Source of the DNA: Clostridia bacterium
GTDB taxonomy: Bacteria; Bacillota; Clostridia; DUPQ01
Direction: 5' to 3'
Assembly (NCBI GenBank): GCA_016935835.1
Contig: JAFGQE010000024.1
Span: 12,338 to 76,337, forward strand
DNA length: 64,000 nucleotides
Positions within the stretch are counted from its first letter, which is position 1, and every line of letters starts with the position of its first letter. This document shows, piece by piece, positions 37,982 through 61,396 of this stretch. The notes below the pieces were generated by a model. It searched no databases. It was not told the DNA's origin and was given only the letters and a program-made list of their open reading frames with translations. The position numbers were made by a program, and so were the translations under genes.

Positions 37982-38012
37982 GTGCCGGGTATTTTTGCCC
38001 GGCACATTTTCA
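37982..38012 (+). terminator. rho-independent terminator after the lipoprotein gene
   Basis: GTGCCGGG-tatttttg-CCCGGCAC followed by ATTTTCATCTTT. Confidence 0.6.
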
Positions 38013-39074
38013 TCTTTGTCTTTGGCCGAGTTTTTTGCAGGAATCGAAATACTGTTCAATGTTTTCCAGGGGAATGTTGTGGGGAAGATCGCCTGCGGCG
38101 CGTATGAAGTAACCCGGATACTTTTTGCCAAGGTCCATGCAACGGCCCACTTCCCTGCGCACATCCTCCCTTGTTCCGCAGGTAAGTATGCGCGAATCCA
38201 CATTGCCGCATATCACCTTTGATTTTCCATATTTTTCAAGAACCGGTCCAAGATCAACGTAATTGTCAACGATCAGTCCGTCGACGCCGACCGCGAACAG
38301 GTCGTCTATCAATTCGGTATAGTTGCCGTCCGATACAAAAATGAGTTTTTTCCCGGCTTTCCTGATGGGTTCAAATATTCTTTCATATCCGGGGAATATG
38401 TTATCCCTGTACCATTCCTTCGGGAAGACAAGCCCCCTGGTCAGGGCCAGGTCGTCGTGGCAGAATATGACCTCGGAGCCCGAGACAACCCATTCCTTTA
38501 TATTCCTTACGGAAAATTCAGTGAACAGCTCAATTTTCCTCCTGAACCTTTCAGGCTCGGTTCGTGCGGTTACAAGAAACATTTCCCATCCAAAGGCCAT
38601 TATGAAACATTGGAACAACGTGGTATAGTACAATCCCGTAACCAATGCCGAATCCCCTGCCAGCCTTGATCCCCTTATACATTCATCGAGGCGGTTTTTA
38701 CGGTATTCCTCCGAAACTATCCTTACTCTTCCCGTGTTGTCCTCCAATGGATTGTATTCAAGGATCTCATCCTCGTCCCTGAAGACCCCGTCCTCCTCCC
38801 ACTGGCTTCCCGTAAAGCCCCATTCGGTATAATGCACCCCATCCTCTATTCGCGAAGATTCCCCGGCGGAAAACTTATGTGATTTTTCCGGAATCGCCAC
38901 ATACCAGTCGATGTCAAGCTTTTTAATCAGCTCAATGATGGCTTTTTCCGGTTGTTCGAAAGGATCCAGCCCGGTTGTCTTCCTGATGAATTCAGGATGG
39001 TCCACCCATTCCTGGGCCGGAACCCGGTCTGTCGTTTCGAGGTTCATGGCCTTGACCGCGCGTTCTCTTGACAT
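38010..39074 (-). CDS. URO-D-like (uroporphyrinogen decarboxylase family) protein, function unknown
   Basis: About 354 aa. The N-terminal 'SRERAVKAMNLETTDRVP' is typical of URO-D/MtaA-like TIM barrels. RBS GGAGGT. Confidence 0.55.
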   Translation of the reverse strand: MSRERAVKAMNLETTDRVPAQEWVDHPEFIRKTTGLDPFEQPEKAIIELIKKLDIDWYVAIPEKSHKFSAGESSRIEDGVHYTEWGFTGSQWEEDGVFRDEDEILEYNPLEDNTGRVRIVSEEYRKNRLDECIRGSRLAGDSALVTGLYYTTLFQCFIMAFGWEMFLVTARTEPERFRRKIELFTEFSVRNIKEWVVSGSEVIFCHDDLALTRGLVFPKEWYRDNIFPGYERIFEPIRKAGKKLIFVSDGNYTELIDDLFAVGVDGLIVDNYVDLGPVLEKYGKSKVICGNVDSRILTCGTREDVRREVGRCMDLGKKYPGYFIRAAGDLPHNIPLENIEQYFDSCKKLGQRQR

Positions 39075-39179
39075 TTGGTACCTCCGCAAAAATATGGTTC
39101 ACTAACAAATTATAACATGCGGGCATGCGCATATTGAAGGATAAGCAAATAAAAAAGGCGGGCACACCCGCCGTTTTAA

Positions 39180-40142
39180 TTATTCGCTTTTTATATCGTC
39201 AAGGAATATTTCGCCGCCCCCCTGGCGTCGGCTTTTTATTCCTCCCGCTATTATTTTCATGCATTCTACCGTTTCACTGAAATCAAACGGAGCCTCGCCC
39301 GTCCTCAGGTAAGATATAAATGCCTCCAACTGCGCCCTGAAAGAATGATATGTGCCGCCGGATTCAGCGAATTCAAACGATTTGTCCCCGGCAAACATGG
39401 CTTTCCCAAACGACCCGAACATATCGTATATGGCGGCTATCACTATGTCCGCACCGCACGAATGCTTGAGGTGAACAATGTTCCTCTTCTCGTCCCCGGT
39501 GTTCCGCACGGATATGAAGCCGGGTCCCAGAATGGGATATATACCTTCAAGTGCATGTATTCCATATCTTTCCCAGGTCTTTGGGGTGGTTATCGTAACG
39601 TATTTCAGTTTGCCCAGATGATCGGCGGACCTTCTCAGCTTCTCAAAACCGGGGCTGTATCTCATTGAGCTTGATGACATGAATTTCCCGCCTTCCCTAT
39701 GCCACTTGACAAAGGTCCGAAGGTCTTCCTCATTGTCGCACATGGGTTTGTCAATGAAAACCGGAATTCCCGCCTCGATGAAAGGCCTTGCTCTGTCGAC
39801 ATGCTCCCATCCCCTGTCCGTTGCTATTATTACCGCGTCAACTTTTCCGATTACATCCTCCGCCCGGGCAACCGGATTAGGTATGAGCGATGCCGCGGCG
39901 ACTTTTTGCGTATCCTCCGGATCGTCGCACCACACATGCGTTACATTCACATCTGGAATTCTGAGGGTTTCCTTCGGTTGCTCACCCAGATAGTCCGGTA
40001 TTGTCGGATATGGGCAAAGAGCCATTTTCCCTTCATCGTATCCATTGCAAATCGCGCTCCATGAATACGGATGCCCGTTGCCGTCAACCATTCCCAGCAT
40101 AGCCAGGTTGATTTGCCTTTTATTCACTATTGGTTTTGCCAT
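39180..40142 (-). CDS. Gfo/Idh/MocA-family oxidoreductase (atypical)
   Basis: 320 aa with an N-terminal Rossmann fold 'LAMLGMV..' and a C-terminal alpha/beta domain. RBS GGAGG. Confidence 0.55.
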   Translation of the reverse strand: MAKPIVNKRQINLAMLGMVDGNGHPYSWSAICNGYDEGKMALCPYPTIPDYLGEQPKETLRIPDVNVTHVWCDDPEDTQKVAAASLIPNPVARAEDVIGKVDAVIIATDRGWEHVDRARPFIEAGIPVFIDKPMCDNEEDLRTFVKWHREGGKFMSSSSMRYSPGFEKLRRSADHLGKLKYVTITTPKTWERYGIHALEGIYPILGPGFISVRNTGDEKRNIVHLKHSCGADIVIAAIYDMFGSFGKAMFAGDKSFEFAESGGTYHSFRAQLEAFISYLRTGEAPFDFSETVECMKIIAGGIKSRRQGGGEIFLDDIKSE

Positions 40143-40160
40143 CTGCCTGCCTCCGTAATC

Positions 40161-40946
40161 TTATTTCGCGGTCAGTCCGCCGTCAACCGGGATGTTTGCT
40201 CCCGTTATGTACGAAGATGCATCTGAAGCAAGGAAAACAATGATTCCCATCATGTCCGTATCATTCGCCATGCGCTTCAAGAACGTCTTGTCAATATAGT
40301 TCTCCTTGAAATCAGCGGGTGTGGCCGGTGTTTCATATCCCCCCGGATGAATGCAGTTGAACCTTACCTTCGAGGAGCCATAGTATCCCGCGAAAAACCT
40401 TGTCGCGTTGGCCATTCCCCCTTTATTGTAATAATATGCGGCTCCCCCGGTTTTCTGCAGGCCCGTTCCCTCATACAACCAGTTGTCATAGCCTACCAGG
40501 CCATATATGGATCCGATATTTATGACAGAGCCTCCGCCGGAATCCGCCATTGCCTTTGCGAATTCCCTGCACATCAATATCAGGCCGGTTGCATTTACAT
40601 TGAAATCCTCATCAAGTTTTTCAGCCGTCAGATCATCAATGTGGCCGGACCTCGCGACTGAATTATTCACCAGAACATCTATTTTCCCGTCCTGTCTTAG
40701 TATGTCGTCCAACAGCCCCTTGATTGAATCCTCATCGCCCTGGTCATATGCGATTGGAAACACATCAAGGCCTTCCTCTTTTAAAGCCCCGGCAAATTCA
40801 GCAAGCTTATCCAGATTCCTGGAAGCCATATATGTCTTCGCCCCCGCCTGTGCAAGGGCCCTTACCATCTGGCGCCCGTACAGTCCGGACCCTCCCGTGA
40901 CCAACGCAACCTTTCCCTTCAAACTGAAACTGTCCAATATGTTCAT
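40161..40946 (-). CDS. SDR-family oxidoreductase
   Basis: 'ALVTGGSGLYG' cofactor motif and a 'YGSSK' catalytic YxxxK. Confidence 0.75.
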   Translation of the reverse strand: MNILDSFSLKGKVALVTGGSGLYGRQMVRALAQAGAKTYMASRNLDKLAEFAGALKEEGLDVFPIAYDQGDEDSIKGLLDDILRQDGKIDVLVNNSVARSGHIDDLTAEKLDEDFNVNATGLILMCREFAKAMADSGGGSVINIGSIYGLVGYDNWLYEGTGLQKTGGAAYYYNKGGMANATRFFAGYYGSSKVRFNCIHPGGYETPATPADFKENYIDKTFLKRMANDTDMMGIIVFLASDASSYITGANIPVDGGLTAK

Positions 40947-40950
40947 AACA

Positions 40951-41871
40951 TCATCCTTTCACCTTGTCCCAGAGCCATGGATAGAAAAGCCAGTCAGGCG
41001 CACCCCTCAGCCCCTCCCTTACCTCCTCCATCCTGGCCTCATCAAGCGAAGATTCCCCGACCATCCGGGCGTTTTCCAAAACCTGCCGGGGGTTGTCCGC
41101 ACCTATTACCAGCGACGTCACATATTCAAGGCTGTTCACATAGCCGATTGCCAGCCGGGCCGCAGACATCCCGTATCCGGATGCCAGTTCCCGGATTTTC
41201 ACAATATAGCCGCCGATTTGCGATAGATTACCCTTCAATTCCCCCGGTTCCATGAAAAACAGTCCCTGAAGATAGATGCTTCTGGCAAAAACCGTCCTTC
41301 CCCAAAGCCTTTCCTTCATTTTTGAATCTGAATTCCTTTGGTCGAGCATATTGACCGGCATCTGGAAGGCATCATACATGCTGTTTTCCAGAAGCGGCTC
41401 TATTTCCTGCAGCGAGTAACCCGATGCACCGGCTTTTTTTATCATTCCAAGATCCTTCAATTTTCTTATCGATGAATCTATCTGTACTTTGTATTTTAAA
41501 TATTCCTTCGCATCATGCATAAGGATGAAATCAACATAATCAGTCTTCAGATTCACAAGCGACTTTTCAACCGATTCAATCAGTACATGCTGCGCCTCAT
41601 CCTCCTTGACGTCGCCAAGCTTGAATTTGGTTGAGATGAAAATCGAACCCCTTGAAATGCCGTTGCCCTTCAAATACTCTCCGATGACTTTTTCAGAATC
41701 GCCGTATGCGGCGGCCGTGTCAAGGCAATTGACCCCGCATTCAAGCGCTTTGTCCAAAATGGAAAACGCCTTTTTTAAATCCGGCTTTCCCTCTTTGTTT
41801 GCAATCCCGTAGTCAAGGCCAAGCTGTACCGTGCCGAGCGTCATTCGGGATATAACCTTGGAATCCATCAT
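40951..41871 (-). CDS. aldo/keto reductase
   Basis: 'LGTVQLGLDYG', 'DTAAAYGDSE' and 'ISTK' AKR signatures. Confidence 0.75.
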   Translation of the reverse strand: MMDSKVISRMTLGTVQLGLDYGIANKEGKPDLKKAFSILDKALECGVNCLDTAAAYGDSEKVIGEYLKGNGISRGSIFISTKFKLGDVKEDEAQHVLIESVEKSLVNLKTDYVDFILMHDAKEYLKYKVQIDSSIRKLKDLGMIKKAGASGYSLQEIEPLLENSMYDAFQMPVNMLDQRNSDSKMKERLWGRTVFARSIYLQGLFFMEPGELKGNLSQIGGYIVKIRELASGYGMSAARLAIGYVNSLEYVTSLVIGADNPRQVLENARMVGESSLDEARMEEVREGLRGAPDWLFYPWLWDKVKG

Positions 41872-42743
41872 ATCTCTCCTGTTTCCTTCATGCATTCATA
41901 TACCTTCCGCCTGACGCTCTCCCCGGCCGGCGCATGATAATCCGGCTGATACTCGCCCGGCATCCCCAGAAGTTCCATTGCATGGGAATAAGCGGAAAAA
42001 ACCGACCCCCTTACAAACTCGTCCCTCAACCTCACTATGTTGGCCAGATGAACCGAAACCCCCGGATAATCCCCGTTCCTTGCGCACAGGTACATGCTTT
42101 TCGTGTTTTTGGGCATGCAGGTGAACATTCCGTCAAGGTTCTTTGCCAATCCGTTTTGAATCGCCTTGTCAAAAACGTCAAGCCCACTGAAAAGCACCTC
42201 GAAACCTTTTCTGAACCTGTTTTCATCCATGAATGACTTAAGGAGATCATAATTCGCCGATTTTATTCCCGCGATGTTTTCATTCCCGGCCAAAGCTCCC
42301 AGCGAAATGGCATCCAGCGGCGATTGCGTCACCGACGGGAGGTCATAGACATACACCGGGTAGTATGATTCAGAAGCCAGCTTTTCAAAGAAGCTTATTA
42401 TTTGTTCAGGGGAAGATTTATAATAGTAAGGCGTAGTGGCCACCACTCCTTCTATTTCAATATCACCAAGGGCGTATATCCTGTCCATTACCCTGGAAAC
42501 CGAGTTGTCCATGACCCCCACCATAACCGGCACTCTTCCGGCTGCGGCGTTGACGCAGGCTTCGGCGATGTCCGGGTAATCCTGGTCGCGTATGGAAACC
42601 ATGTTCCCCATGGACCCCATGCACAAAAGTCCCGAGGCGCCTGCATCAATCATTTTTTCTATCTGCATCCCGAAGCTTGCTCTCTCCAGGCTTCCTTCCC
42701 GGTCCAGGGGAGTTCCAAGCGCCGGGAAAAATCCATCCTTCAT
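41868..42743 (-). CDS. DapA-family (dihydrodipicolinate synthase / N-acetylneuraminate lyase-like) class I aldolase
   Basis: 'FPALGTPLDREGSL' N-terminus and a Schiff-base Lys region 'GIKSANYD'. Confidence 0.65.
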   Translation of the reverse strand: MKDGFFPALGTPLDREGSLERASFGMQIEKMIDAGASGLLCMGSMGNMVSIRDQDYPDIAEACVNAAAGRVPVMVGVMDNSVSRVMDRIYALGDIEIEGVVATTPYYYKSSPEQIISFFEKLASESYYPVYVYDLPSVTQSPLDAISLGALAGNENIAGIKSANYDLLKSFMDENRFRKGFEVLFSGLDVFDKAIQNGLAKNLDGMFTCMPKNTKSMYLCARNGDYPGVSVHLANIVRLRDEFVRGSVFSAYSHAMELLGMPGEYQPDYHAPAGESVRRKVYECMKETGEI

Positions 42744-42744
42744 T

Positions 42745-43788
42745 TTAAAACCTCTCATATCTTTCTTCAGACGAGGTCCTGTACGCTGATTGTATTACTC
42801 TCTGAACCTGCACCGCATCCTCAGCCGGAACCTCTATATCCGTTTTGTTGATTATTGAATTGGAAAAAGACTCAATTTCCTTGGTATACATATTGCCGAA
42901 TTCGACTTTTACATCAATGGGCTCGACCCGGTTCCTGTCCTGTGCGGCATCATACCCGAGCGTGTCGTCGGATAGCATGACCTCAAGCTTTCCGCCCTCC
43001 GCCTGGCTGATGGTCCCCTCCGCAAGCATGCTGCCTTTTGTCCCGTAGATCTCAAGCCGCCCCCTTGCCGCGGCGTCGGGTATGTTGAAATTTGCCTCTA
43101 TGTGGCACAGGGCCCCGTTCTCAAGTTCGACAAGCAATGCCCCGCTGTCCTCCACCTCATAACCAAATGTCAGTGTTTTAGCCATTCCCGCGGCTCTTTT
43201 CGCCCTGGACCCGGTTATATGCTGTATAAGGTCAAGGCAATGAACGCCCATGTCCATCAATGCGCCTCCGCCGGAAGATGCGAACGATTGCCTCCAGCTT
43301 CCGGGAATATCGGGATACCAGCATGTCAGCTGAGCCCTGCAGGAAACTATCTGGCCCAGTTTTCCTTCCTCAACAAGCCTCTTCATCGCCACGTGGTATG
43401 CATGAAAGCGCATCATGAAGCCCGTTGCAAGAAGAACGCCTTTCCTTTTGCAGTACTCTATTACTTCCTGGCCTTCCCCGACCGTAAGCGCTATGGGTTT
43501 TTCCAGCAATATATGTTTCCCGTAATCAGCCGCCATCATCGCCTGCTCCTTGTGAAACACAACCGGAGATGCTATATAAACGGCTTCCGTCCCTGGGTCC
43601 GACAGAAGGTCCCTTGCATTCGTGAAAGCTTTGTCCGCCCCGTACTTTGCCCTGAGATTTTCCGAAACATCCGGGTCTATCTCCATGACAGAGCGTATGC
43701 GCGCATTCCCTGCAAGCATCATGCCCGGCATTGTCCTTCTGTCCGCGATGCCTCCCGCGCCCAAAACACCCCAATTAACCTTTCTCAT
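42745..43788 (-). CDS. Gfo/Idh/MocA-family NAD(P)-dependent oxidoreductase
   Basis: 'VNWGVLGAGGIA' Rossmann fold, 'EKP' motif and a C-terminal dimerisation domain. RBS AAGGAG. Confidence 0.7.
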   Translation of the reverse strand: MRKVNWGVLGAGGIADRRTMPGMMLAGNARIRSVMEIDPDVSENLRAKYGADKAFTNARDLLSDPGTEAVYIASPVVFHKEQAMMAADYGKHILLEKPIALTVGEGQEVIEYCKRKGVLLATGFMMRFHAYHVAMKRLVEEGKLGQIVSCRAQLTCWYPDIPGSWRQSFASSGGGALMDMGVHCLDLIQHITGSRAKRAAGMAKTLTFGYEVEDSGALLVELENGALCHIEANFNIPDAAARGRLEIYGTKGSMLAEGTISQAEGGKLEVMLSDDTLGYDAAQDRNRVEPIDVKVEFGNMYTKEIESFSNSIINKTDIEVPAEDAVQVQRVIQSAYRTSSEERYERF

Positions 43789-44869
43789 CGGTTATTCTCC
43801 TTCCGCCTGATATGACTTCATAAACATTTGCTTCCTCATCCATTATTACAATATCCGCTTTTTTACCCGGTTTTATACTTCCGGTCTTACTATCTATGCC
43901 AAGAAGCCTCGCCGGATTCAGCGAGCCCATCCTTACCGCTCCGGACCAGCCTATTCCAGTGTGCCTTTTCATGTTTGCAACAGCCCTGCCTACGCTAAGC
44001 AATGATCCGGAGAGTTCCCCGGCTTCATTGTAATTCAGGTCTCCTTCGACGCCCGCTTCCGGCGTCGATACCGCGTCGGAAATAAGGATCAGCCTGTCGC
44101 CCATGATTTTATATGCAATAACAAGCAGCTCCCGCGGAACATGCACTCCGTTGGAGTCAGCTATTATCTCTGCATAAAGATTGCCGTCCGCAAGCACTGC
44201 CTCCGCTGTTCCATTTTCATGTATCGCCGCACATTCCCTGCTTTTTGGTCCCATTGCGTCAAACAGGTGGCATACCAGCCTGATTCCTCCCAGTTTGTCC
44301 GCCTTGCATCCGGTATGTCCCGCGCATGGGATTATCTCTTCCTTAGAAGCGAGGAATGCCTTGAATTCGTCCGCTCCTTCGAGCTCGGGAGAAAATGTCC
44401 AGATTCTTATCCTTCCCTTGCCCGCACTGTAAATATCTTCATATATGCCCTGTTCAATGTCGCTGGCATATCTTGTGTCTGCACCATATTCCTGATTGAT
44501 GAACGGGCCTTCGCAGTTGATGCCCAGGATTTCATTTTCCTCCATGGATGCAATCCCGGAAACAGCCAAAAGGAATTCCGGCATTGTCATGTTGTAACCG
44601 ATGGTGGGAAGAATGCCCAGCGTTCCCCTGGTCCTGTGAGCCCGAAGCGCAACCCCGGGATCCTGTGAGAACAGCCTGCCTCCTCCCCCATGGCAATGTA
44701 TGTCGATGAATCCCGGGACTACAAGCCTTCCCTCCGCATCGATGCTTTCTTCCGGCATAAAAGCGGGAAATCCCGGGGCCATTTCGGCAATGATTCCGTT
44801 TTCAATGCCAATGAAGCCATCGAATATTTCATTTTCCGCCACTATCCTGCCATTTACGACATACAGCAT
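43775..44869 (-). CDS. nagA: N-acetylglucosamine-6-phosphate deacetylase
   Basis: 'PGFIDIHCHGGGG' amidohydrolase metal site, and NagA family features throughout. Confidence 0.8.
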   Translation of the reverse strand: MLYVVNGRIVAENEIFDGFIGIENGIIAEMAPGFPAFMPEESIDAEGRLVVPGFIDIHCHGGGGRLFSQDPGVALRAHRTRGTLGILPTIGYNMTMPEFLLAVSGIASMEENEILGINCEGPFINQEYGADTRYASDIEQGIYEDIYSAGKGRIRIWTFSPELEGADEFKAFLASKEEIIPCAGHTGCKADKLGGIRLVCHLFDAMGPKSRECAAIHENGTAEAVLADGNLYAEIIADSNGVHVPRELLVIAYKIMGDRLILISDAVSTPEAGVEGDLNYNEAGELSGSLLSVGRAVANMKRHTGIGWSGAVRMGSLNPARLLGIDSKTGSIKPGKKADIVIMDEEANVYEVISGGRRITDEKG

Positions 44870-44885
44870 GAGTCAACCTGTCCCC

Positions 44886-45836
44886 TCAATTGCAATCCGC
44901 TTCGAGAGGCCCGGCAAGTTCCTTCAGGAAGAATAGCTTTCCCGGAAGGGTTGGCATAAACGAAGAAGGAACCCACATATCGGGACCATATCTAAGGGTC
45001 ATCCACAGCGACATGCCCTGCCATTGCATTCCCCTGCCCAGCGCACCGTCGCAACCGCCTATGATCTTGTCGGATTTCAGGAACAATCCGGGTCCGACGG
45101 TGTTCGCCCTGCACGGCACGAGGGTCGTCCTGCTTTTGAAACTGGTTATGGCATTTTGTTCTATTGTAAGAGGATGCAAAAGGGCCCCGGTTCTGTGAGT
45201 TTGTTTCTTCCATTCGTCAACCGATGAAAACTCTCCTGCAAATTGTGGTTCCCAGAATGCTATGTGGCACATCCTGCCGATACCGAATACGGTTACAAGC
45301 CGGGCTCCCTCTTCCTTCAGTGCCGCTATTTTACCGACATATGTCGGGAGGTTTTCTTTCGTTGCAAAATTCCTTTGTCCGGGCGGAACCGTCAGTTCTC
45401 CCAGCGGACCATAGAAAGCCTGTTCCATGGCATTCTGAAAAGACCCGGGATCATCCGGCGCAAGGGTGTTCCCATCCCCGTCGCTCCACTCGTCCATGTT
45501 GAATCCATGAACATGCGCGGCGCCAGTTCCCCATTCCTTCAGAAAGTAAACGGCCCATCGGTACATCCCCATCGGACCCACCGGAAGAATCATTGCGAGC
45601 TTTCTTTTTTCATCCGCTGTCTTCCTGATCTCCATCGCTATTTCATGGCCCATCATCATGTCGAAGTCATTAATGTTGCCACACTCCACCGGAATGAAAT
45701 CCCTGTTCCAGAATGGCTGTCTTTTCAATATGTCCCCGGGTGAATTTGAACAGCACCCATCGATTTTACCAAAGTCCCATCCGGCGGGATAAAAGCCTTC
45801 GAGCAGGGACCCTTTTATTGTGTCCATAAAGTTCAT
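44886..45836 (-). CDS. nagB: glucosamine-6-phosphate deaminase/isomerase (NagB family)
   Basis: NagB/6-phosphogluconolactonase fold with 'ILPVGPMG' and 'HIAFWEP'. The likely start is the ATG at 45836 (MNFMDT), which has an RBS GAAAGGA. Confidence 0.65.
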
Positions 45837-45875
45837 AATGATCATCCTTTCAGTCTTTGCCTTCTTTTCGGCGTT

Positions 45876-46583
45876 CTACGGAAGCAGTCTTTCGGTCGAC
45901 TGCCGCGGCCATGTCCTGCAAAAGCGGAATCCCTCGGCATACTCCACTCCGCACTGAAGTCCCCTGAATTTTGAAACAGTCCTCACAAAATCAAGGAAAT
46001 CAATGCCGTCGTGGTCCCTCATCCACTTGACCTGGCTTTCATGTTTTTCAAGCGCCTTCAGCTTTGTTTGCAGTGTTTCCGTTATGTCGACATATTCCTC
46101 GGGAAGAAATCCCACGCCGGCCAGGGTATCCATATAATATATAGGGACTATTTTGCCAAAAGCCCCTCCGTTGGCGCCATAATGCGGAACACTTGATGAA
46201 AATGATGCGTCGAACACCATCCTTCCGGTCTCGACATGGTCCTTCATATAGTCTTCAGGCGAATGGGTTATGATCAGATCCGGCCTGACATCACGTATTA
46301 CCTCAATTAACTTTTTGACCGTGCCCTCATCCCGCGAATCCACTGTGAGGTCGGGAACATCAATGTTGAAAACCCGGCCGGCACCCAGGATTCTTCCGGA
46401 TTCCTCCGCCTCCGCGGTTCTGATCTCCCTCAGTTCCTCCGGCATGATCACGGCATGCCCCATGTTGCCGTTGGCAACATGGCACGTGAACACATCATGT
46501 TTTTTCAGCGCGAACTTTGCAAGCGTTCCCCCGCAGCCTATCTCAAGGTCGTCGGGATGGCATCCCACAGCTAAAACTCTCAT
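45876..46583 (-). CDS. PIG-L/LmbE-family N-acetylglucosaminyl deacetylase
   Basis: 'LAVGCHPDDLEIGCGGT' zinc-binding motif. Confidence 0.75.
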   Translation of the reverse strand: MRVLAVGCHPDDLEIGCGGTLAKFALKKHDVFTCHVANGNMGHAVIMPEELREIRTAEAEESGRILGAGRVFNIDVPDLTVDSRDEGTVKKLIEVIRDVRPDLIITHSPEDYMKDHVETGRMVFDASFSSSVPHYGANGGAFGKIVPIYYMDTLAGVGFLPEEYVDITETLQTKLKALEKHESQVKWMRDHDGIDFLDFVRTVSKFRGLQCGVEYAEGFRFCRTWPRQSTERLLP

Positions 46584-46593
46584 TTCATCCCCT

Positions 46594-47865
46594 CTACTTT
46601 ATATGCTTTCTGCAAACTTCCAGAAAAGCATCTATGCATCTCTTTATATGCTCGTCCTCCCAGCTTGGATGCAGGAACAGGCTCACCGTCCTCGACCTCA
46701 GGGAGTTTGCCATCGGACAGAAGACCTCATCATATCTTACGCTCTTTTTATCCGTGTATTCCCTTGACTTGAACGGAAACTTGTGCGCGCCGAATCCATT
46801 GTGCTCCCTGTAGGCTCTTTCGCGATAGGCTTCGGGCCATTGTATCCCGTAGCAGGGTATTCCCATATCGTGCAGTTCCTTGGTGAATTCCACCGCATCT
46901 ATATCCAGGACATCCGTATTAAGCACTATCGGGTACCACCAGTATGCATTCCTTCTCTCATCAGTGTTCACCGGGAGCTTGCCTATGCCCCTTTGGTTCC
47001 GAAACGCCTCATCGTACATACCCGCATACCTGTATCTTCTTGCCAGATTCCATTTATCCAATCTTTTCAGCTCATTGATTCCTATGATGGACTGTATTTC
47101 AGTCATCCTGTAATTAAATCCCACACGGTTGTGTATGTACGGCAGCTTCTCCTCAAGCGCAAGCATGTTCATCCTTTCCCTGACATCGTATCCATGGTCC
47201 CTGAATGAACGGAATTCCCATGCAAGGTCCTCGTCGTTTGTAACAACCATTCCTCCTTCGCCGCCCGTCGTGAAGTGCTTGCTCTGGCAGAAGCTGAAGC
47301 ATCCCGCATCACCGATCACCCCTGCCTTGACGCCCTTGAATTCGCCCCCGAAGCACTGCGCGCAGTCCTCAATGACCTTCAGTTTGTGCTTTTTGGCTAG
47401 GTACAATATCGGCGCCATGTCCGCCATGACACCGTAAAGATGCACGACTACTATTCCTTTGGTCCTGCGGGTTATAAGGTCTTCTATTCCATCGGGGTCT
47501 ATCGTATGGTCTTCCGTCACATCGCAGAAAACAGGTATGGCCCCCGCCTGCACGATTGCAAAGGATGATGCTATGAATGAATATGACGGAACTATAACTT
47601 CATCCCCCGGCCCGATGCCAAGTCCCGCCAGCGCTATATGAAGGGCCGCCGTTCCATTGGTACATGACACCGCGTATTTCGCGCCGTTCCATTCAGCCCA
47701 TTTTTTCTCAAACTCCATGCCTTTTTGACCCGTCCAGTAGTTCACCTTTCCGCTTTTCAAGGGTTCCTGGATGTCTGCCAGTGTTTCCGGTGCAAACTGC
47801 GGCCACATCGGGAATCCCAGGTCTTTTATCCCCGCGCCGTTCATTACCTTTTTTTCTTCTTCCAT
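46594..47865 (-). CDS. DegT/DnrJ/EryC1/StrS-family PLP-dependent (amino)sugar aminotransferase
   Basis: 423 aa with a 'SFCQSKHFTTGGEGG' PLP-lysine motif. RBS GGGAGG. Confidence 0.75.
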   Translation of the reverse strand: MEEEKKVMNGAGIKDLGFPMWPQFAPETLADIQEPLKSGKVNYWTGQKGMEFEKKWAEWNGAKYAVSCTNGTAALHIALAGLGIGPGDEVIVPSYSFIASSFAIVQAGAIPVFCDVTEDHTIDPDGIEDLITRRTKGIVVVHLYGVMADMAPILYLAKKHKLKVIEDCAQCFGGEFKGVKAGVIGDAGCFSFCQSKHFTTGGEGGMVVTNDEDLAWEFRSFRDHGYDVRERMNMLALEEKLPYIHNRVGFNYRMTEIQSIIGINELKRLDKWNLARRYRYAGMYDEAFRNQRGIGKLPVNTDERRNAYWWYPIVLNTDVLDIDAVEFTKELHDMGIPCYGIQWPEAYRERAYREHNGFGAHKFPFKSREYTDKKSVRYDEVFCPMANSLRSRTVSLFLHPSWEDEHIKRCIDAFLEVCRKHIK

Positions 47866-47886
47866 TTGAATCTACCTCCCGATTTT

Positions 47887-48321
47887 TTATTTCTTTGTTA
47901 CCGTTGCACTGCATCTGGCCATGCCGGTCATGCTAAGGTCCATCGAGTACTCATAGCCAAGCGGTTCAAGCACCCTGCTGTATATCGCCGGGCAATGCCC
48001 GCAGTATTCTTCATAGGGTTCCATGTAATCCAATTCGATCAACATGGCTTTTGACGGGCACTTATGCATTTCTATGCGAAACTCGTTTTTCCCCTCATCA
48101 AGAGTCATCCTGAAATCCGCGGCTTCTTCATTCAGGGCTTTCTCCCAATACATGAAGCATCCCCTAATGCCATGTTCCGACACAAGCTTCCTCAGGCTGT
48201 CCCTTAGATAATTATCTGATAAATAATCCCAGAAACGCCCGACCTCGGCCCGGCCGCCTTTTTTTTCAATGAAGCGAAACCCCTCGCTGTAGGCTGGTAT
48301 GAATTCGGTGCATGATATCAT
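47887..48321 (-). CDS. hypothetical Cys-containing protein, paralog A (about 144 aa)
   Basis: The ATG at 48321 has an RBS AGGAGG 8 nt upstream. Conserved 'HKCP...YCGHCP...C' positions are shared with the upstream paralog. Confidence 0.5.
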   Translation of the reverse strand: MISCTEFIPAYSEGFRFIEKKGGRAEVGRFWDYLSDNYLRDSLRKLVSEHGIRGCFMYWEKALNEEAADFRMTLDEGKNEFRIEMHKCPSKAMLIELDYMEPYEEYCGHCPAIYSRVLEPLGYEYSMDLSMTGMARCSATVTKK

Positions 48322-48783
48322 GGCATGTTCCTCCTGAAAAACCTCTGTCTGCATGCGCCTTTTTCATCGTCAAAGTATTCCAGCCTGTATTCATACGGAG
48401 TCCCCGCGCACATAGCTTCATATACGGTTCCATATGTCTCGCGGTACTGTTTTATTGGTTCAAGGCCGGCTTTCCTGATATGCGAAATGCCCGGGCACGA
48501 CTCCTGTGTTATAACAAGTTCTTTATCTTCCATCAATATTTCAACGGGCCATTCCTCCTTCTTGTAAATCTCCCTGAAGTATGACTCCAGTGAAGCAAGG
48601 TCGTCTGCAATCAGAAACTCTTTTCTGGGGGCGTGAAACGCCGAGGAGAATTCAACAAGGTATTCAATAAGCGCATTCTCGCCGAAAACCGAGCAAATAT
48701 AATCCATAAGCATATTCATCGATATGTGGAAGTCCCGGTGCAGATATTTGTTATCGGAAGCTTTTCTCTCAATAACTTTCATT
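48318..48783 (-). CDS. hypothetical Cys-containing protein, paralog B (about 155 aa)
   Basis: 'ESCPGISHIRKAG...MCAGTPYEY...GACRQRF' aligns with paralog A. ATG at 48783. Confidence 0.5.
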
Positions 48784-50121
48784 TTGCAATTCCTTTTTAT
48801 TTGCCAGTGGTCTAAGGATCTTGCCGTCGACCATCTCCACGAGAATATCGCCGGCGTTATATACAAGCTGGCTCGACCATGCCGTCCTTACTTCATATCC
48901 CCCTTGTAAAAAAGCTTCTTCCTTCGGGATATATCCCGACTGGCTGTTGGCAAGTCCGATTACCATCGTATATTCAAATGCCGATCTTTTCTTTACTTCC
49001 AGACCGAACTCAACATAAACTTCCCCGGGGAAAGTTACAAATGCAAATTCACCTACAGCCATACCCTGCATCACGGTCTCGAACTCTTTGTCCGGCCTTT
49101 CGAGCATTCCCTTTATCATCTTTGCATAGGTCTTGTCGGGTATTCCGTCGAACATGTCCTCCACTTTGTCCCTGTCCCTTTCGAGAACCATGTCGGCCCA
49201 TTCCCTTTCCTGTAGTGTTATTTCGCGAAGCGGTATTGCGACGGTCTTGGATTCATATGATACCGGGCCTTCGATTGGATGTGATAATTCGATGCATTCC
49301 TTAGAATGACGGCCAAGCTTACGCCCTATTCGCCTGGTCTCCCGAAAATCCCTCCATTGATTTGTTTTTTTGAAATTCAGGTGGTTTATATTGCCTTCGG
49401 CGCCGTTTGCAAAAAGCACGACGGCATCCCTTCCATATGAATCCAGCAGATATTCGTCAAGATAGTGTATGAAATCCCTTGATATGAGCCATTTGTAGCC
49501 GACAAGAATGGCCGGGTGAAGGGTGAAGTTAACCAGACATGCAAGCAGTTCACCCGTCTTTTTCCAAACGGAAAGAACAAGAAGCTCCGGGTCTGTCGGC
49601 CCGGTCGCCCCGACAATGTCTTCAGCTTCAAATTCCTCAAAATTCATGACCACCGTGCCGTCCTTTTTGACAAGCCGCCTGTTGAAACTAAGGTCACTGA
49701 TTTCCTTCCGGCCTATCCTCAGGTCCGCCTCTATATACCTTTTATGTATTTCCCCGGCTCCATCCGCAACTTTGACTGCCGTTTCACCCAAATATTCGCC
49801 GATGATTTCATCTATCCCATGGTACATCCGCATGCACGTGTCCGGCCCCGAATGCGTGTGTGTTCCCCAGATCGTTATATTCGAAGCCGCAATCCCGGTT
49901 GATTTGGAAACCTTCTTCCTGATGTCGTTGCAAGTTTCGTATTTGAGTCCGACGAAATCAAATCCCATCAGGCACACTTCGGTCTTTCCATCATCAAGCA
50001 TCAGTATATTGCAGAACAAATCGTCATGAACTCCCCTGGATTTATTGTCAATCCTTACGTTTCCACCCATCGGGATGCCGTTCCCGGGCGTTATCTTAAC
50101 TCTTCCGGCTGCTGCTTTCAT
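48769..50121 (-). CDS. neutral/alkaline ceramidase-family hydrolase
   Basis: 'GRVKITP' N-terminus and the 'IWGTHTHSGP' zinc-site motif of the neutral ceramidase N-terminal domain. RBS AGGAGA. Confidence 0.65.
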   Translation of the reverse strand: MKAAAGRVKITPGNGIPMGGNVRIDNKSRGVHDDLFCNILMLDDGKTEVCLMGFDFVGLKYETCNDIRKKVSKSTGIAASNITIWGTHTHSGPDTCMRMYHGIDEIIGEYLGETAVKVADGAGEIHKRYIEADLRIGRKEISDLSFNRRLVKKDGTVVMNFEEFEAEDIVGATGPTDPELLVLSVWKKTGELLACLVNFTLHPAILVGYKWLISRDFIHYLDEYLLDSYGRDAVVLFANGAEGNINHLNFKKTNQWRDFRETRRIGRKLGRHSKECIELSHPIEGPVSYESKTVAIPLREITLQEREWADMVLERDRDKVEDMFDGIPDKTYAKMIKGMLERPDKEFETVMQGMAVGEFAFVTFPGEVYVEFGLEVKKRSAFEYTMVIGLANSQSGYIPKEEAFLQGGYEVRTAWSSQLVYNAGDILVEMVDGKILRPLANKKELQNESY

Positions 50122-50129
50122 CTCGTCTC

Positions 50130-51326
50130 CTAAAATATTTTATTGAATATATATCTCGCCCCGCCTGCTGTAACAGGGTTCCCTTCGAATTCCGACATAA
50201 TGATCTTTGTTCTGCGATTTCTGTCAAGGCCTATCCTTCTCTGAACTTCCACAACCTTCTTCAAAAACCCGCTGCCCATGGCGGTTATTTTGCCCCCTAT
50301 TACAACAGCCCCCGGGTTAATCAGGTTGATGGCGTTATTGATTCCGTACGCTATATATTCCGCCGTCTTGTCAATTTGCCCGGAATACCTTTTTTTGCCG
50401 ATGTATTCCATTGCGATTATCCTCAGCTTCTCATCTTCCGTCCTTGTCTCCGGATGTTCTTTTAAAAAATCCGTTTCGCTTTCAATGTTTGCCACAAGGG
50501 CGGGGATGCTTGCAAGAATTTCAAGGCAGCCCCTGCTCCCGCATTTGCACACGGGCCCGTTGAGGTCGATCGATATGTGCCCGAACTCACCCGCAAGCTC
50601 ACCAGAGCCTTCATATATGCTTCCGTTTATTATTATTCCGGCTCCTATACCGGCATGAATGTCAATGTAAAGCAGATTGTCCGTATGTCTTCCGATTGCC
50701 CCGTACTGCGATTCCGCGTAAGCACATAAACCGGATTCGTTCATTATTTCCACCGTAACATCCGGAAAAGCTTTTTTCAATTTTTCATAAAACAGGTTTG
50801 ATGTTTCCAGTGGTATTATGGTGGAAGACACCACCCTCCCCTTCTTTCTGTCGATTATACCGGGCGCACCGACGCATATGCCAAGCAATCGATCGACTCC
50901 ATAACCGCATTTTTCAAGAAGAATCGCCGTATTTTCAACTATTGACGAACCCAGCGCTTCATAATCTTTCAATGGTATGAACACCTCGTCCAGTGATTGG
51001 CATTTCAAATTGAAGATTCCAAGATAATACCCGTTCTTTTGAAGGTCAGCCGCTATTATTGCCCCTCCGCCGGGATTGACTTCCAGCATAATGGGTTTTC
51101 TTCCGCTTGTTGCCAATTCACCAGCCCCGGTCTCGATTACCAGGCCCGATGAAATCAATCCGTCCGCAAGAGTTGACACAGTAGTGGGGCTCAATCCTGT
51201 ACTGGCTGCTATCCCTGCCCTTGAAATCCCTTCGTTAATGCAAATCAATGCAAAGATACGCCTCATATTGGCTTCTTTTATAAGCTGCTGGCTTGATGTC
51301 TTTTTAGGTCCGACGTCAGTAAACAA
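50130..51326 (-). CDS. ROK-family transcriptional regulator (NagC/XylR-like)
   Basis: N-terminal HTH ('QQLIKEANMRRIFALI...ISRAGIA') followed by a ROK sugar-kinase-like domain with a 'CKCGSRGCLE' zinc motif. TTG start with an RBS GGAG. Confidence 0.75.
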   Translation of the reverse strand: MFTDVGPKKTSSQQLIKEANMRRIFALICINEGISRAGIAASTGLSPTTVSTLADGLISSGLVIETGAGELATSGRKPIMLEVNPGGGAIIAADLQKNGYYLGIFNLKCQSLDEVFIPLKDYEALGSSIVENTAILLEKCGYGVDRLLGICVGAPGIIDRKKGRVVSSTIIPLETSNLFYEKLKKAFPDVTVEIMNESGLCAYAESQYGAIGRHTDNLLYIDIHAGIGAGIIINGSIYEGSGELAGEFGHISIDLNGPVCKCGSRGCLEILASIPALVANIESETDFLKEHPETRTEDEKLRIIAMEYIGKKRYSGQIDKTAEYIAYGINNAINLINPGAVVIGGKITAMGSGFLKKVVEVQRRIGLDRNRRTKIIMSEFEGNPVTAGGARYIFNKIF

Positions 51327-51529: not shown

Positions 51530-52792
51530 TCACCACATCCTGTCGATGAGTTCCCTTACTATCTTCACGGCCTTGCCTGCTTTTTTAAAATCATCGGTAA
51601 GAGTGTATACATCCCTGAATATAATCTCCATATGGCATCCTTTGCCTGCCTTCAATGTCCTTTCGATATGCTTTCTGAAGGCTTCCTCGTCGAAGCTGCC
51701 GACTCCAAGGAAATTCGGACTGGGTTTCCTTGAATATATGACGTTGCCGCCCCTTAAAGCCTCTCCCATGAGTTCTTCATTACACCAGGGTGAGATTGAT
51801 ACTTTTCTAAGATTTTTCAACTTGCTTACGCATGTTTCCCATATTTCGTGGACCGGCTCGCAGCAACCGTAATAAACAAGCCCGAACCTTTCGGCGGCTT
51901 TTCTAAAAATAGGAAATACAAACTCCTCATACATCGAAGGGGATAATCCAACGCTTTCCTGGGAATTCATGTTTCCCCAGATGTCCCTTGTGGTAATCCT
52001 TCCCGTTTTTTTATAATCCTCGGATGGAAGTTCATCGGTAAACCCGTAACTGCCCGCCCCCGCCCTGATATTCCCGTTGTCCAGTGCAAGCAGTCCGTTC
52101 TGTTCCTGCCAGTCCATGTATTCGAAGGAATCCTCGAGTATGAAGTCAAAAAGCTCCCTTGTCTCGTCGGGGTAGTCCATTATTGAATACATAAGGGTCT
52201 CAAGCCCCATCATATTGACCGCCCTGGCTGTAAACGACATGAACCAAAGCAAAGAATTGTTCACAAGCTGTATTTTCAGAATATCGCCAAGCAGATCCTG
52301 CATGAATTCAAAATGGCTTTGAGTCCCCTTGGCGTCATAATTGTAAACGGATTTTTTAAGCATCCCGAAATCCCTTGCCAGGTCCTTGATCGGATGTTCG
52401 CTGCTGTATCCCAGGTTCCTGCCCTTGGAATCAGCCGCCCGGTGAATTACCCTGTCGGCATCAAGCTCCCTCATATTGATTCTCATCCCGACGGGGAAAA
52501 AATCAGGAACCACCTTGTCGTCATCCACCAGTTCATGGCTGCTTATATTTGACAAGAGCTCATTCTCAACCGCAACCGCTGCCTCGGAAACACAAAACCT
52601 TTCCGGAAACAGCTCCTCCCGGAATGGCCCGGTCTCGACGACGACCATCGGTTTTTCACCCCTCAGACCGTTGTTGTCATACCAGTTCTTTCTTCGCGCC
52701 TCCATTACGGGGAGCCTTGAAATATCCAGTTGCTTCTTCGCCAGATCCCTTAGATATTCTTTTTCTTTTTTTAGTATAAAATAATCAGCCAT
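51530..52792 (-). CDS. hypothetical TIM-barrel protein, possibly URO-D/methyltransferase-like; first gene of the long minus-strand locus
   Basis: 420 aa with an RBS GGAG. I cannot assign a family with confidence. Confidence 0.4.
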   Translation of the reverse strand: MADYFILKKEKEYLRDLAKKQLDISRLPVMEARRKNWYDNNGLRGEKPMVVVETGPFREELFPERFCVSEAAVAVENELLSNISSHELVDDDKVVPDFFPVGMRINMRELDADRVIHRAADSKGRNLGYSSEHPIKDLARDFGMLKKSVYNYDAKGTQSHFEFMQDLLGDILKIQLVNNSLLWFMSFTARAVNMMGLETLMYSIMDYPDETRELFDFILEDSFEYMDWQEQNGLLALDNGNIRAGAGSYGFTDELPSEDYKKTGRITTRDIWGNMNSQESVGLSPSMYEEFVFPIFRKAAERFGLVYYGCCEPVHEIWETCVSKLKNLRKVSISPWCNEELMGEALRGGNVIYSRKPSPNFLGVGSFDEEAFRKHIERTLKAGKGCHMEIIFRDVYTLTDDFKKAGKAVKIVRELIDRMW

Positions 52793-52942: not shown

Positions 52943-53401
52943 ATGTTTTGTGAACAATGCGGTAAGGAAATACCTGAAAACTCCAAGTTCTGTTCCGGAT
53001 GCGGAGCGAAAATCGAACCTACGGAAAACATCCTTGAAGAGTCCATGTCTGAACCCACGGCAGCGGAAGCCTCTTATTTTGAAGAACCTCCCCGGGCAGA
53101 ACCCGCCAAGCCGGTTCCCCCTCCTGCGCCCGTAGTGCAAAAAGCACAGTACAACGATAAGAACAACCTTGTAAAGCCGCTGAGCATAGGCGCCTATGTC
53201 GGCATGCTCATCCTGCTGTGGATACCTATCGTCAACATCATAATGCTGCTTGTCTGGAGTTTCAGCGATACCGTAAACGTAAACAAGAAGCATCTGGCAA
53301 TCGCAATACTCATACTGGCTTTGATAGGAATCGTACTGGGAATCATATTCGGCGTCCTGACCGCAATCCTCGGAGCCGGTTTTTACCGTTATTATTTTTA
53401 G
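52943..53401 (+). CDS. zinc-ribbon domain membrane protein
   Basis: N-terminal 'CEQCGKEI...CSGCGAKI', a Pro-rich linker and two C-terminal TM helices. RBS AAGGAG. Confidence 0.65.
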   Translation: MFCEQCGKEIPENSKFCSGCGAKIEPTENILEESMSEPTAAEASYFEEPPRAEPAKPVPPPAPVVQKAQYNDKNNLVKPLSIGAYVGMLILLWIPIVNIIMLLVWSFSDTVNVNKKHLAIAILILALIGIVLGIIFGVLTAILGAGFYRYYF

Positions 53402-53425: not shown

Positions 53426-54043
53426 ATGGGAAATAATTTTTGCGGCAATTGCGGCGCGGCATTGAAGCAAGGCGTGAAATTCTGCGGCAAATGCGGACAT
53501 GCGGTTCCCGGTGTCCCTGTTACCGGCCCAAACCCGGCTGCTCCCGCAGGTAAAAGCATGTCTTATCGCCTGATGATTCCGGCGTCATACAAAAAAAACC
53601 TGATTTCCATTAAGGGCTGTACACTGATTTTTTCCGACTCGCAGATATTAATCGCCTTTTTCAATCAGAAACTTATGAATCAACACATAAACGAGGTCCG
53701 GAACGAGGCAAGGGACGAGGGTTTCTTTAAAAGAGCCGCGGCGGTCATGTCCGCCGGATTCTCCTACTCGGAAAGATACCGGACAATGCTTCCCGATGCG
53801 ATACTCGCAGAATCACCCGACAACTTTTCGATACTGAACAATTCGGTTGAGTTAGTCAAATTCAAGCATTCCCGGACCAGTTACAATTCCGATGAAACGA
53901 CTCACACATACCCGCCCGAGCTGACCATAAAATGTCCGGGGGGAAAATACAATTTCTCGCTCAACCTGTCTTCCGACAGCGGTAACCTGGTCAGGGTCCT
54001 GCACGAATTATTCCCTGAAAGATACAAAGGCCCGAAAAGATAG
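53426..54043 (+). CDS. zinc-ribbon domain protein with an uncharacterised C-terminal domain
   Basis: N-terminal 'CGNCGAAL...CGKCGHAV'. RBS AAGGAG. Confidence 0.6.
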   Translation: MGNNFCGNCGAALKQGVKFCGKCGHAVPGVPVTGPNPAAPAGKSMSYRLMIPASYKKNLISIKGCTLIFSDSQILIAFFNQKLMNQHINEVRNEARDEGFFKRAAAVMSAGFSYSERYRTMLPDAILAESPDNFSILNNSVELVKFKHSRTSYNSDETTHTYPPELTIKCPGGKYNFSLNLSSDSGNLVRVLHELFPERYKGPKR

Positions 54044-61256: not shown

Positions 61257-61396
61257 AGTAACCTCCGCATGTTCTCATTCTACCACATTGACCCGCCTGC
61301 GCATTTGTTCACATTATGTTTTTGGGATCCCGACCCTTGCCGCCGCCTGTTTTTCATGTTACTGTTCTTTCAAAGTATACTATTCCGGAGGAACAG

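Follow-up and report, generated by a model that had tools for sequence, protein, structure and literature searches.

Two anciently diverged paralogues encoded side by side in a Clostridia operon, candidate subunits of a substrate-handling module in sugar-acid catabolism

The DNA analysed here (the window) is a stretch of 64,000 nucleotides (nt) from contig JAFGQE010000024.1 of a Clostridia bacterium (assembly GCA_016935835.1), and our subject is two small adjacent genes on its minus strand, which we call A and B:

47887–48321, minus strand: gene A, encoding 144 amino acids (aa), with a Bet3/V4R-type fold, at the edge of the Pfam family ATC_hydrolase; the highly conserved member of the pair
48318–48782, minus strand: gene B, encoding 154 aa, with a Bet3/V4R-type fold; the more divergent member of the pair
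48318–48321, minus strand: ATGA, in which the stop codon of B and the start codon of A overlap, read from the sequence
48330–48335, minus strand: AGGAGG, the ribosome-binding site of A, read from the sequence, within the 3' end of B and 8 nt before the ATG of A

A first-pass annotation, made from the sequence alone, had described these as two abutting open reading frames (ORFs), with A starting at an ATG at 48321 behind an AGGAGG of its own; both ORFs are indeed present, on the minus strand, and have many homologues, the AGGAGG lies at 48335–48330, and the peptide stretches quoted for the two proteins are correct. Its coordinates were right overall, save that the 5' end of B was put at 48783, one base off the ATG at 48782–48780. 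A program-made ORF list contained longer frames at 47887–48354 (155 aa) and 48318–48866 (182 aa, with a TTG start); alignment with homologues placed the start of A at the ATG at 48321, internal to the 155-aa ORF, as all homologues begin M-I-S-C (the N-terminus of A reads M-I-S-C-T-E-F...), and that of B at the internal ATG noted above (N-terminus M-K-V-I-E-R-K-A-S-D-N-K-Y-L-H...). The TGA of B (48320–48318) thereby overlaps the ATG of A (48321–48319), which implies translational coupling; the identical four-base overlap was found in 45 related loci, among those in which both ORFs could be delimited, the gap between B and A in the remaining related loci was mostly -1 to 60 nt, and GGAGG-like motifs stood at the matching junction position in most. 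Exact copies of the two proteins are recorded as 'hypothetical protein' (JXB33_02095 and JXB33_02100) from a Clostridia metagenome-assembled genome (MAG). A word-indexed search of a 5.8-billion-protein collection identified 1926 homologous clusters for A and 148 for B and, together with confident AlphaFold models (pLDDT 94.0 and pTM 0.87 for A; 90.0 and 0.81 for B), this puts both ORFs far beyond chance. The homologues were named 'hypothetical protein' throughout, except for P0066, which carried the automated label 'predicted ArsR family transcriptional regulator'.

A scan for the B motif in one genome per GTDB species gave 168 relatives, from which 80 loci spanning at least five phyla were kept; A was on the same strand in 76 of these and directly downstream in 72. 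A lay upstream of B in four loci, with intervening genes in two (L051 and L077) and as an A-B fusion in the other two (L076 and L078), while in the two inspected loci that lacked A (L018 and L044) the match to B was close to a contig end. Seeding with A gave the same picture: among 80 metagenome loci, 66 had room upstream and all 66 carried B directly upstream on the same strand, an arrangement likewise found in four more A-seeded look-ups. The excess of A clusters over B clusters might suggest that A often occurs without B; we rejected this, as B evolves faster than A (31–40% identity where A retains 44–60%), so that a word-indexed search finds fewer of its homologues, and as every one of the 66 A-seeded loci carries B. 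A and B are an obligate pair. A crude ORF map of one Lachnospiraceae-type MAG (L075) showed the order A-B-A with duplicated flanking gene sets, which points to a tandem duplication of the module at that locus.

The two proteins are also related to each other. A direct BLASTP comparison of A and B gave no significant match (E = 0.2, 22% identity over 50 residues) and hhalign with narrow first alignments gave a probability of 52.7%, but with broad alignments of distinct sequences drawn from the related loci (79 for A, 82 for B) the probability rose to 94.5% (E = 7.5e-8, 13% identity over 128 columns), the alignment spanning the full length of both proteins in register. In both AlphaFold models four helices are followed by beta-beta-alpha-alpha-beta-beta, and based on this shared order and the hhalign match A and B are homologous. 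The duplication is old, as A and B already stand side by side as distinct genes in Bacillota, Bacteroidota, Planctomycetota, Kiritimatiellota, Acidobacteriota (Solibacteraceae) and Ratteibacteria. A and B are therefore ancient paralogues whose homology is visible at the profile level only; the first-pass annotation was right to call them paralogous, and its further suggestion that they were recently duplicated does not fit 13% identity and a pair already present in all of these groups.

The models of A and B have the fold common to Bet3/TRAPP, BcsD, V4R and H-NOX proteins. Among solved structures the fold matches were to BcsD (8.4 / 7.0), to the V4R phenol-sensor domains of PoxR and DmpR (7.3 and 6.8 / 6.2 and 5.9), and further to YslB, H-NOX proteins and the V4R protein MJ1460, typically spanning 105–130 aligned residues; the closest folds include dimer-forming scaffold subunits (the heterodimers Bet3-Trs33 and Bet3-TPC6B, and BcsD). 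A Foldseek search against solved structures gave nothing at E ≤ 0.001, the best matches being to TRAPP/Bet3, BcsD and H-NOX with TM scores of 0.5–0.6, and sequence-profile searches of the PDB with A and B gave chance partial matches only (tyrosine phosphatase and topoisomerase, E ≥ 0.0015). There is no NCBIfam model for A or B and no Pfam family for B, and Pfam V4R (PF02830) had no match at E ≤ 10 to the window proteins, to 104 family members or to the consensus sequences. The nearest sequence family of both proteins is PF14196, ATC_hydrolase (145 model positions, gathering cut-off 28.1 bits). In the A family 23 of 55 members matched it at E ≤ 0.1 (best 3.5e-7), the A consensus scored 28.1 bits, exactly the cut-off, over positions 8–134, and one cluster (P0085) carried a precomputed match. 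The B of the window had no match to PF14196 and just four of 49 B members did (best E = 0.0029); it was nevertheless the top match of the B consensus (21.5 bits, E = 4.4e-4), below the cut-off. Judged by these profile scores, A is a borderline and B a sub-threshold relative of ATC_hydrolase, and we hold the fold and superfamily assignment with high confidence. The first-pass annotation had raised a relationship to L-2-amino-thiazoline-4-carboxylate (ATC) hydrolases as an unverified lead, which proved sound as to the nearest sequence family; it had placed the two proteins in no known family. The fold is a known one, and by sequence the pair belongs to the fringe of PF14196. Our search of the literature on PF14196 and ATC hydrolase found only annotation mentions and one domain-census paper.

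Residue conservation was counted in 82 B sequences and in 79 A sequences, the latter with identities as low as 38%. In A, residues C4, C88, H109, C110 and C137 were invariant (79/79), C107 was present in 77 and C55 in 71, and T5, F7, Y11, E13, F15, W31, G51, Y58, W59, L63, E65, E66, A67, P89, S90, L94, Y106 and Y114 were invariant or nearly so. Identity across phyla was 44–74%, with about one-third of positions kept in at least 90% of the sequences, and these include many polar and aromatic residues as well as the N-terminal M-I-S-C. The invariant set of B comprised N11-K-Y-L-H15-x-D17-F-H19 (in its N-terminal motif DNKYLHxDFH, residues D10 to H19), Y28, G34, L42, E76, C96 (78/82), P97 and G142, and two further Cys, C125 (48/82) and C144 (44/82), were not conserved. 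A common C-terminal Cys/His pattern, as claimed in the first-pass annotation, is therefore present in part: the Cys of a CP[SG] motif is common to the pair (C88 in all A, C96 in nearly all B) and the last Cys is aligned (C137 of A with C144 of B) though invariant in A only, but C107-x-H109-C110 of A has no equivalent in B, where C125 is variable.

A domain census relates the HNOB, V4R and ATC_hydrolase domains, the latter two having a conserved three-Cys cluster in common (PMC5847659). This cluster is present in A (C88, C110 and C137, with C107 in 77/79), and of it B conserves only C96. V4R domains related to A and B bind Zn via three Cys (PMC9556785, PMC5847659), and in MopR the ligands are C155, C181 and C189, at a site ~10 Å from the phenol pocket that is called structural (PMC9556785). 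In our models C88 of A falls just after strand 2 and C107-x-x-C110 at the start of the long helix, while C96 and C125 of B fit the first and last of the positions. The spacing C88...C107-x-x-C110 is also that of C155...E178-x-x-C181 in MopR, where we take E178 to be the fourth Zn ligand. By this analogy we infer that A has a putative Zn site, which H109 or C137 would complete, and that in B the site has degenerated; the first-pass suggestion that both proteins bind metal is plausible for A, with its invariant Cys and His, and is not supported for B, where C125 and C144 are not kept.

Gene fusions link A and B to each other and to enzymes. A-B fusions of 321–336 aa, with A first, were found in L076 and L078, and MAGs of Oscillospiraceae/Ruminococcaceae and other Clostridia yielded at least 120 clusters of such proteins (60–99% identity, 98% coverage). 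Together with the translational coupling, these fusions are strong indirect evidence for a 1:1 complex, for which the Bet3-Trs33 and Bet3-TPC6B heterodimers of diverged paralogues are a precedent; from gene arrangement, we consider it very probable that A and B form a heterodimer. In two gut Clostridia loci the A-B fusion was directly followed by a gene (L166, 9996–11411; L167, 1850–3265) whose 471-aa product matched neither Pfam nor NCBIfam and could be a further member of the module. A second kind of fusion joins B to its upstream neighbour in the window:

48769–50121, minus strand: ceramidase-like amidohydrolase, 450 aa (Pfam Ceramidase_alk, E = 1.9e-10)

The stop of this gene overlaps the start of B by 14 nt (48769–48782), and its product, a distant relative of Pseudomonas neutral ceramidase (PDB 2zws, E = 8.9e-6), matches the first 217 of 509 positions of the N-terminal (catalytic) ceramidase domain of Pfam; presumably it has no separate C-terminal domain of the neutral ceramidase kind, for which B may stand in. 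Ceramidase-like-B fusions of 601–604 aa, each a single in-frame ORF, were identified in 12 independent Bacteroidota loci (L009, L010, L011, L019, L020, L022, L025, L058, L097, L099, L152 and L159), residues 1–445 being 55–65% identical to the ceramidase-like protein of the window and residues 447–597 being 51–58% identical to B. We rejected frameshift artefacts as their source, since 12 independent assemblies gave the same 601–604-aa product. Thirdly, three 50%-identity clusters joined A to DUF386 (YhcH/YjgK/YiaL), with Pfam matches above threshold (E = 1e-22 to 1e-24) and with B still directly upstream. A fourth architecture joins a distant A-like domain to an unassigned region (P0466, P0486 and P0467). 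In these proteins and in P0469 the A-like domain keeps the whole Cys/His cluster (M-L-G-C..., CPSKG, YCDHC, GQCW), the unassigned C-terminal region has ~200–250 residues, and P0467 has an additional ATC_hydrolase-like domain in front; they may be a sister family with a built-in partner domain. None of the fusions seen (A-B, ceramidase-like-B, A-DUF386, A-like with unassigned region) contained a helix-turn-helix or AAA+ domain.

The pair is part of a putative operon in the window, with an aldolase-like gene among the further members:

38010–51326, minus strand: putative 14-gene operon, with overlaps or gaps of ≤30 nt except for 90 nt before the last gene
41868–42758, minus strand: DHDPS/NAL-family class I aldolase-like protein, 296 aa (Pfam DHDPS, E = 1.4e-35)

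The order is ROK (NagC-like) regulator, ceramidase-like amidase, B, A, DegT aminotransferase (beginning 21 nt past A), PIG-L deacetylase, NagB-like, NagA-like, GFO/IDH/MocA oxidoreductase, DHDPS-family protein, aldo-keto reductase, short-chain dehydrogenase/reductase (SDR), a GFO-like and a URO-D-like protein. We rejected assignment of the DHDPS-like protein as DapA or NanA, as all NCBIfam equivalogs were far below their cut-offs and it was equally distant from DapA, YagE and NAL in the PDB; the best NCBIfam matches of the DegT protein, PseC and LegC, were likewise far below cut-offs. The NagB-like protein (44886–45845, minus strand, 319 aa) had no Pfam match and scored 34 bits with nagB against a cut-off of 237; it and the adjoining PIG-L protein matched positions 41–228 and 372–424 of NF002557 ('glucosamine-6-phosphate deaminase-like protein', 653 positions), which hints that these two may be another functional pair. 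Two URO-D-family proteins (MtaA-like, far below cut-offs) are encoded in the window (38010–39089, minus strand; 61316–62491, plus strand), and some Bacteroidota loci (e.g., L020) have a further URO-D-like gene close to the pair. Upstream of the operon, a 420-aa protein with no Pfam or NCBIfam match (51530–52792, minus strand) recurs in seven related loci, again immediately before the ROK gene. Two adjacent plus-strand genes (52943–53401 and 53426–54043) encode small proteins, each with an N-terminal Pfam Zn_Ribbon_1 domain; the first overlaps an opposite-strand 173-aa ORF, and both look unrelated to the operon.

ORFs around the pair were clustered in 81 loci, and neighbours within 3.5 kb were counted in 46 well-flanked genome loci and 19 metagenome loci. 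The DHDPS-like gene was the most frequent partner (47 of the 81 loci), followed by the ceramidase-like gene (37), aldo-keto reductase (24), NagA-like (19), NagB-like (15), BNR_2 sialidase-like (15), SDR (14), DegT (13), PIG-L (12) and MFS transporter (12) genes, while NanM-type Kelch mutarotase, GDSL esterase, YhcH/DUF386, FGGY kinase, HpcH aldolase and SusC/SusD genes were rarer. Within 3.5 kb the DHDPS-like gene was present in 22 of the 46 genome loci, the ceramidase-like gene in 18 of them and in 8 of the 19 metagenome loci, and one or the other in 30 and 11, respectively. In the Bacteroidota the pair loci have sialidase-like, NanM, GDSL and SusC/D genes, as in Massilibacteroides vaginae (SusC-SusD-GDSL-NanM-BNR_2-B-A-DHDPS-MFS-AKR-SDR-NagA-like-NagB-like-CerLike, where AKR and CerLike are the aldo-keto reductase and ceramidase-like genes), whereas the lineage with the A-B fusion has a minimal operon in which DHDPS adjoins the fusion, together with AraC regulators and in one case YhcH. 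The gene order of the window operon recurs in four loci (L003, L006, L008 and L085). The link that the first-pass annotation made to the ceramidase-like gene is borne out by the overlap in the window and the 12 Bacteroidota fusions, but specificity to a ceramidase/DegT pathway is not, with DegT near the pair in just 8 of the 46 well-flanked loci, a DHDPS/NAL-family aldolase as the commonest partner, and 8 of the 46 without any of the named neighbours.

Based on these data, a role for A and B in sialic-acid-like sugar-acid catabolism seems probable to us, and we lean, by a little, towards a fuller reading of the pair as a heterodimeric, probably Zn-binding substrate-handling module in the breakdown of N-acyl 2-keto-3-deoxy sugar acids; this is the simplest reading of the fusions to YhcH and to the N-deacylase, the adjacency to the aldolase, and the loci with sialidase-like, NanM and esterase genes. 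Coupled translation would yield A and B in equal amounts for an obligate 1:1 heterodimer, which in some lineages would be a fused pseudo-dimer. A would be the conserved, cofactor-bearing subunit, in which C88, C107 and C110 with H109 and/or C137 would hold Zn at the Zn position of the V4R phenol sensors, beside a pocket of invariant aromatic and acidic residues; B would be the degenerate partner that lost the site and contributes its own DNKYLHxDFH motif. The complex would be cytoplasmic and would act physically with the ceramidase-like N-deacylase, the YhcH-type openase and the DHDPS/NAL-family aldolase, working between N-deacylation and aldol cleavage, where it would bind the deacylated sugar acid as a ring or cyclic imine and probably convert it into an open-chain substrate that the aldolase can use.

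The specific chemical step is speculative, and any single proposal for it is unlikely to be right; candidates are ring opening and isomerisation. As far as is known, a single ATC_hydrolase has been characterised, and its substrate is a five-membered C=N heterocycle bearing a carboxylate, which it opens; a de-N-acylated neuraminic-type acid cyclises to such a cyclic imine, a likeness that makes ring opening or isomerisation an attractive guess. That A and B are a new two-subunit Zn-dependent enzyme, e.g., a ring-opening hydrolase or isomerase acting on a cyclic imine or other cyclic form of a de-N-acylated nonulosonic acid, is a suggestion that we think unlikely. Still, an enzyme or a specific ligand binder seems likelier than a bare scaffold, as the conservation of A is high and polar and the nearest family is named after an enzyme. 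YhcH itself, a Zn protein, opens the Neu5Ac pyranose ring and thereby gives NanA the open-chain form that this aldolase prefers (PMC8141875).

Several observations weigh against the substrate-handling reading. None of the named neighbour families was within 3.5 kb of the pair in 8 of the 46 genome and 5 of the 19 metagenome loci, and sialidase, NanM and YhcH genes are absent from the window operon, in which no transporter was identified. In some Bacillota (Christensenellaceae and others; L046, L048, L050, L053 and L079) the pair is among unrelated-looking genes; inspected by eye, these neighbours are seryl-tRNA synthetase-, alanine/homoserine dehydrogenase- and type III pantothenate kinase-like, with no sugar-acid enzyme, and such housekeeping-like surroundings mean that the pair may function independently of its neighbours. 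The case for a heterodimer is drawn entirely from genomics, the mapping of the Zn site of A on that of V4R follows spacing and secondary-structure position, not residue superposition, and the Zn site of MopR is structural, not catalytic. Finally, the A of the window matches PF14196 over residues 56–107 only, at 15.8 bits (E = 0.025), below the cut-off.

Among the other explanations we weighed, A and B could be a non-catalytic adaptor, a scaffold with a structural Zn site that joins the amidase, the YhcH openase and the aldolase as a metabolon. The dimeric scaffold subunits among the closest solved folds (Bet3-Trs33, Bet3-TPC6B and BcsD) would suit this, as would the variation of the enzyme fusions by lineage (ceramidase-like-B, A-YhcH and A-B) and the description of the homologous MopR site as structural (PMC9556785). 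A is, however, unusually conserved for a scaffold (the 44–74% identity across phyla and one-third of positions kept), the pair is also found without any partner enzyme nearby, and the nearest sequence family carries the name of an enzyme; we regard an adaptor as an unlikely alternative. Rather less likely is a V4R-type ligand sensor that lacks an output domain and controls a ROK or AraC regulator, or an enzyme, by contact. Such regulators do adjoin the pair in several loci, and P0066 bears its ArsR label; yet neither A, B nor the fusions seen have a DNA-binding or signalling domain, the regulators vary between loci and are missing from many, all fusions join enzymes or A with B and never regulators, and the pair sits within the run of enzyme genes and not at the regulator.

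The Cys of A could instead be put to redox use, four to five invariant Cys ligating an iron-sulfur (Fe-S) cluster or forming redox-active disulfides. Five Cys kept in 77–79 of 79 sequences along with one invariant His, the prevalence of anaerobes among the carriers (Clostridia, Bacteroidales) and several oxidoreductases within the operon are in keeping with this idea; against it, the Cys spacing of A is unlike the classical ferredoxin and radical-SAM motifs, the carriers also include aerobic or facultative genera (Arenibacter, Maribellus and members of the Solibacteraceae), and no Pfam Fe-S family matched the window proteins, the A members or the consensus sequences. In V4R domains, which are related, the conserved Cys serve as Zn ligands (PMC9556785), and we think an Fe-S or redox protein very improbable. 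Most improbable of all is that A and B are a true L-2-amino-thiazoline-4-carboxylate hydrolase, or a cysteine/thiazoline-related enzyme, that chance has placed in this operon: both proteins match PF14196 better than any other Pfam family, but with scores at its threshold or under it, the arrangement as two subunits is maintained, and the conserved neighbours and the enzymes fused to the pair serve carbohydrate and amino-sugar metabolism and are not of the cysteine/hydantoin type.

Comparison of the pair with known systems shows both likenesses and differences. The nearest family, ATC_hydrolase, is matched almost full-length by the A consensus and includes the Cys cluster conserved in A (PMC5847659), but here two paralogues that have diverged take the place of a single protein, most of the cluster is gone from B, and the context is sugar-acid and amino-sugar catabolism, not the conversion of ATC to cysteine via N-carbamoyl-L-cysteine. 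The V4R proteins PoxR, MopR and DmpR (5fru, 6iy8) and MJ1460 (2oso) have the same fold, with Zn ligands in MopR spaced as the Cys of A; unlike these sensors, A and B lack a Pfam V4R match and an AAA+ or DNA-binding output domain, form a hetero-pair and not a homodimer, and occur among, and fused to, enzymes. V4R domains dimerise and bind small molecules between their helical and sheet halves. In the Bet3-family subunits of TRAPP (Bet3, Trs33/TPC6 and Trs31; 2cfh, 2j3t and 2c0j; Asgard TRAPPC3, 7yh2) diverged paralogues heterodimerise, as translational coupling and fusions imply for A and B, but TRAPP is a eukaryotic and Asgard vesicle-tethering complex with 5–15% identity to A and B (a likeness of fold only), whereas the carriers of A and B are bacteria and their neighbours are catabolic enzymes, not a Rab-GEF system; the TRAPP subunits are not known to have a Cys/His cluster of the A type. 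A parallel to the proposed module, as a small cytoplasmic and probably Zn-binding accessory protein of sialic-acid-type operons, is YhcH/NanQ (DUF386), the Zn-dependent Neu5Ac openase that serves a DHDPS/NAL aldolase (PMC8141875), although it is a single subunit of an unrelated family; as A and B co-occur with YhcH and do not replace it, they probably do something else. Searches of the literature on pseudaminic, legionaminic and nonulosonic acid catabolism, and on ceramidase-like genes in sialic-acid operons, found no description of the A/B pair. The fold and superfamily are already known, and what is new is the obligate two-paralogue architecture, its fusions to the amidase and to YhcH, and its place in non-canonical sialic-acid-like loci across phyla.

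The pair is the core of loci resembling those for non-canonical sialic or nonulosonic acid catabolism in Bacteroidota, Clostridia and several other phyla, and the three kinds of fusion tie it to an N-deacylase, a YhcH openase and its own paralogue, which predicts a multi-enzyme assembly around a DHDPS/NAL-type aldolase. A and B are widespread, experimentally tractable and adjoin a recently discovered type of 'substrate-preparing' enzyme. If they were indeed a two-subunit Zn-dependent enzyme, which we think unlikely, they would supply the missing step of an undescribed route for sialic-acid-like sugars (deacylate, open, cleave), used by anaerobes of the gut and the environment and separate from the canonical NanA-NanK-NanE pathway. 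Solving their role would assign a function to two families (~2000 clusters at 90% identity for A alone) and, for the first time, make the ATC_hydrolase-like branch of the Bet3/V4R/H-NOX fold accessible to functional study in carbohydrate metabolism. It could further show by what means bacteria break down N-acylated keto-deoxy sugar acids other than Neu5Ac.

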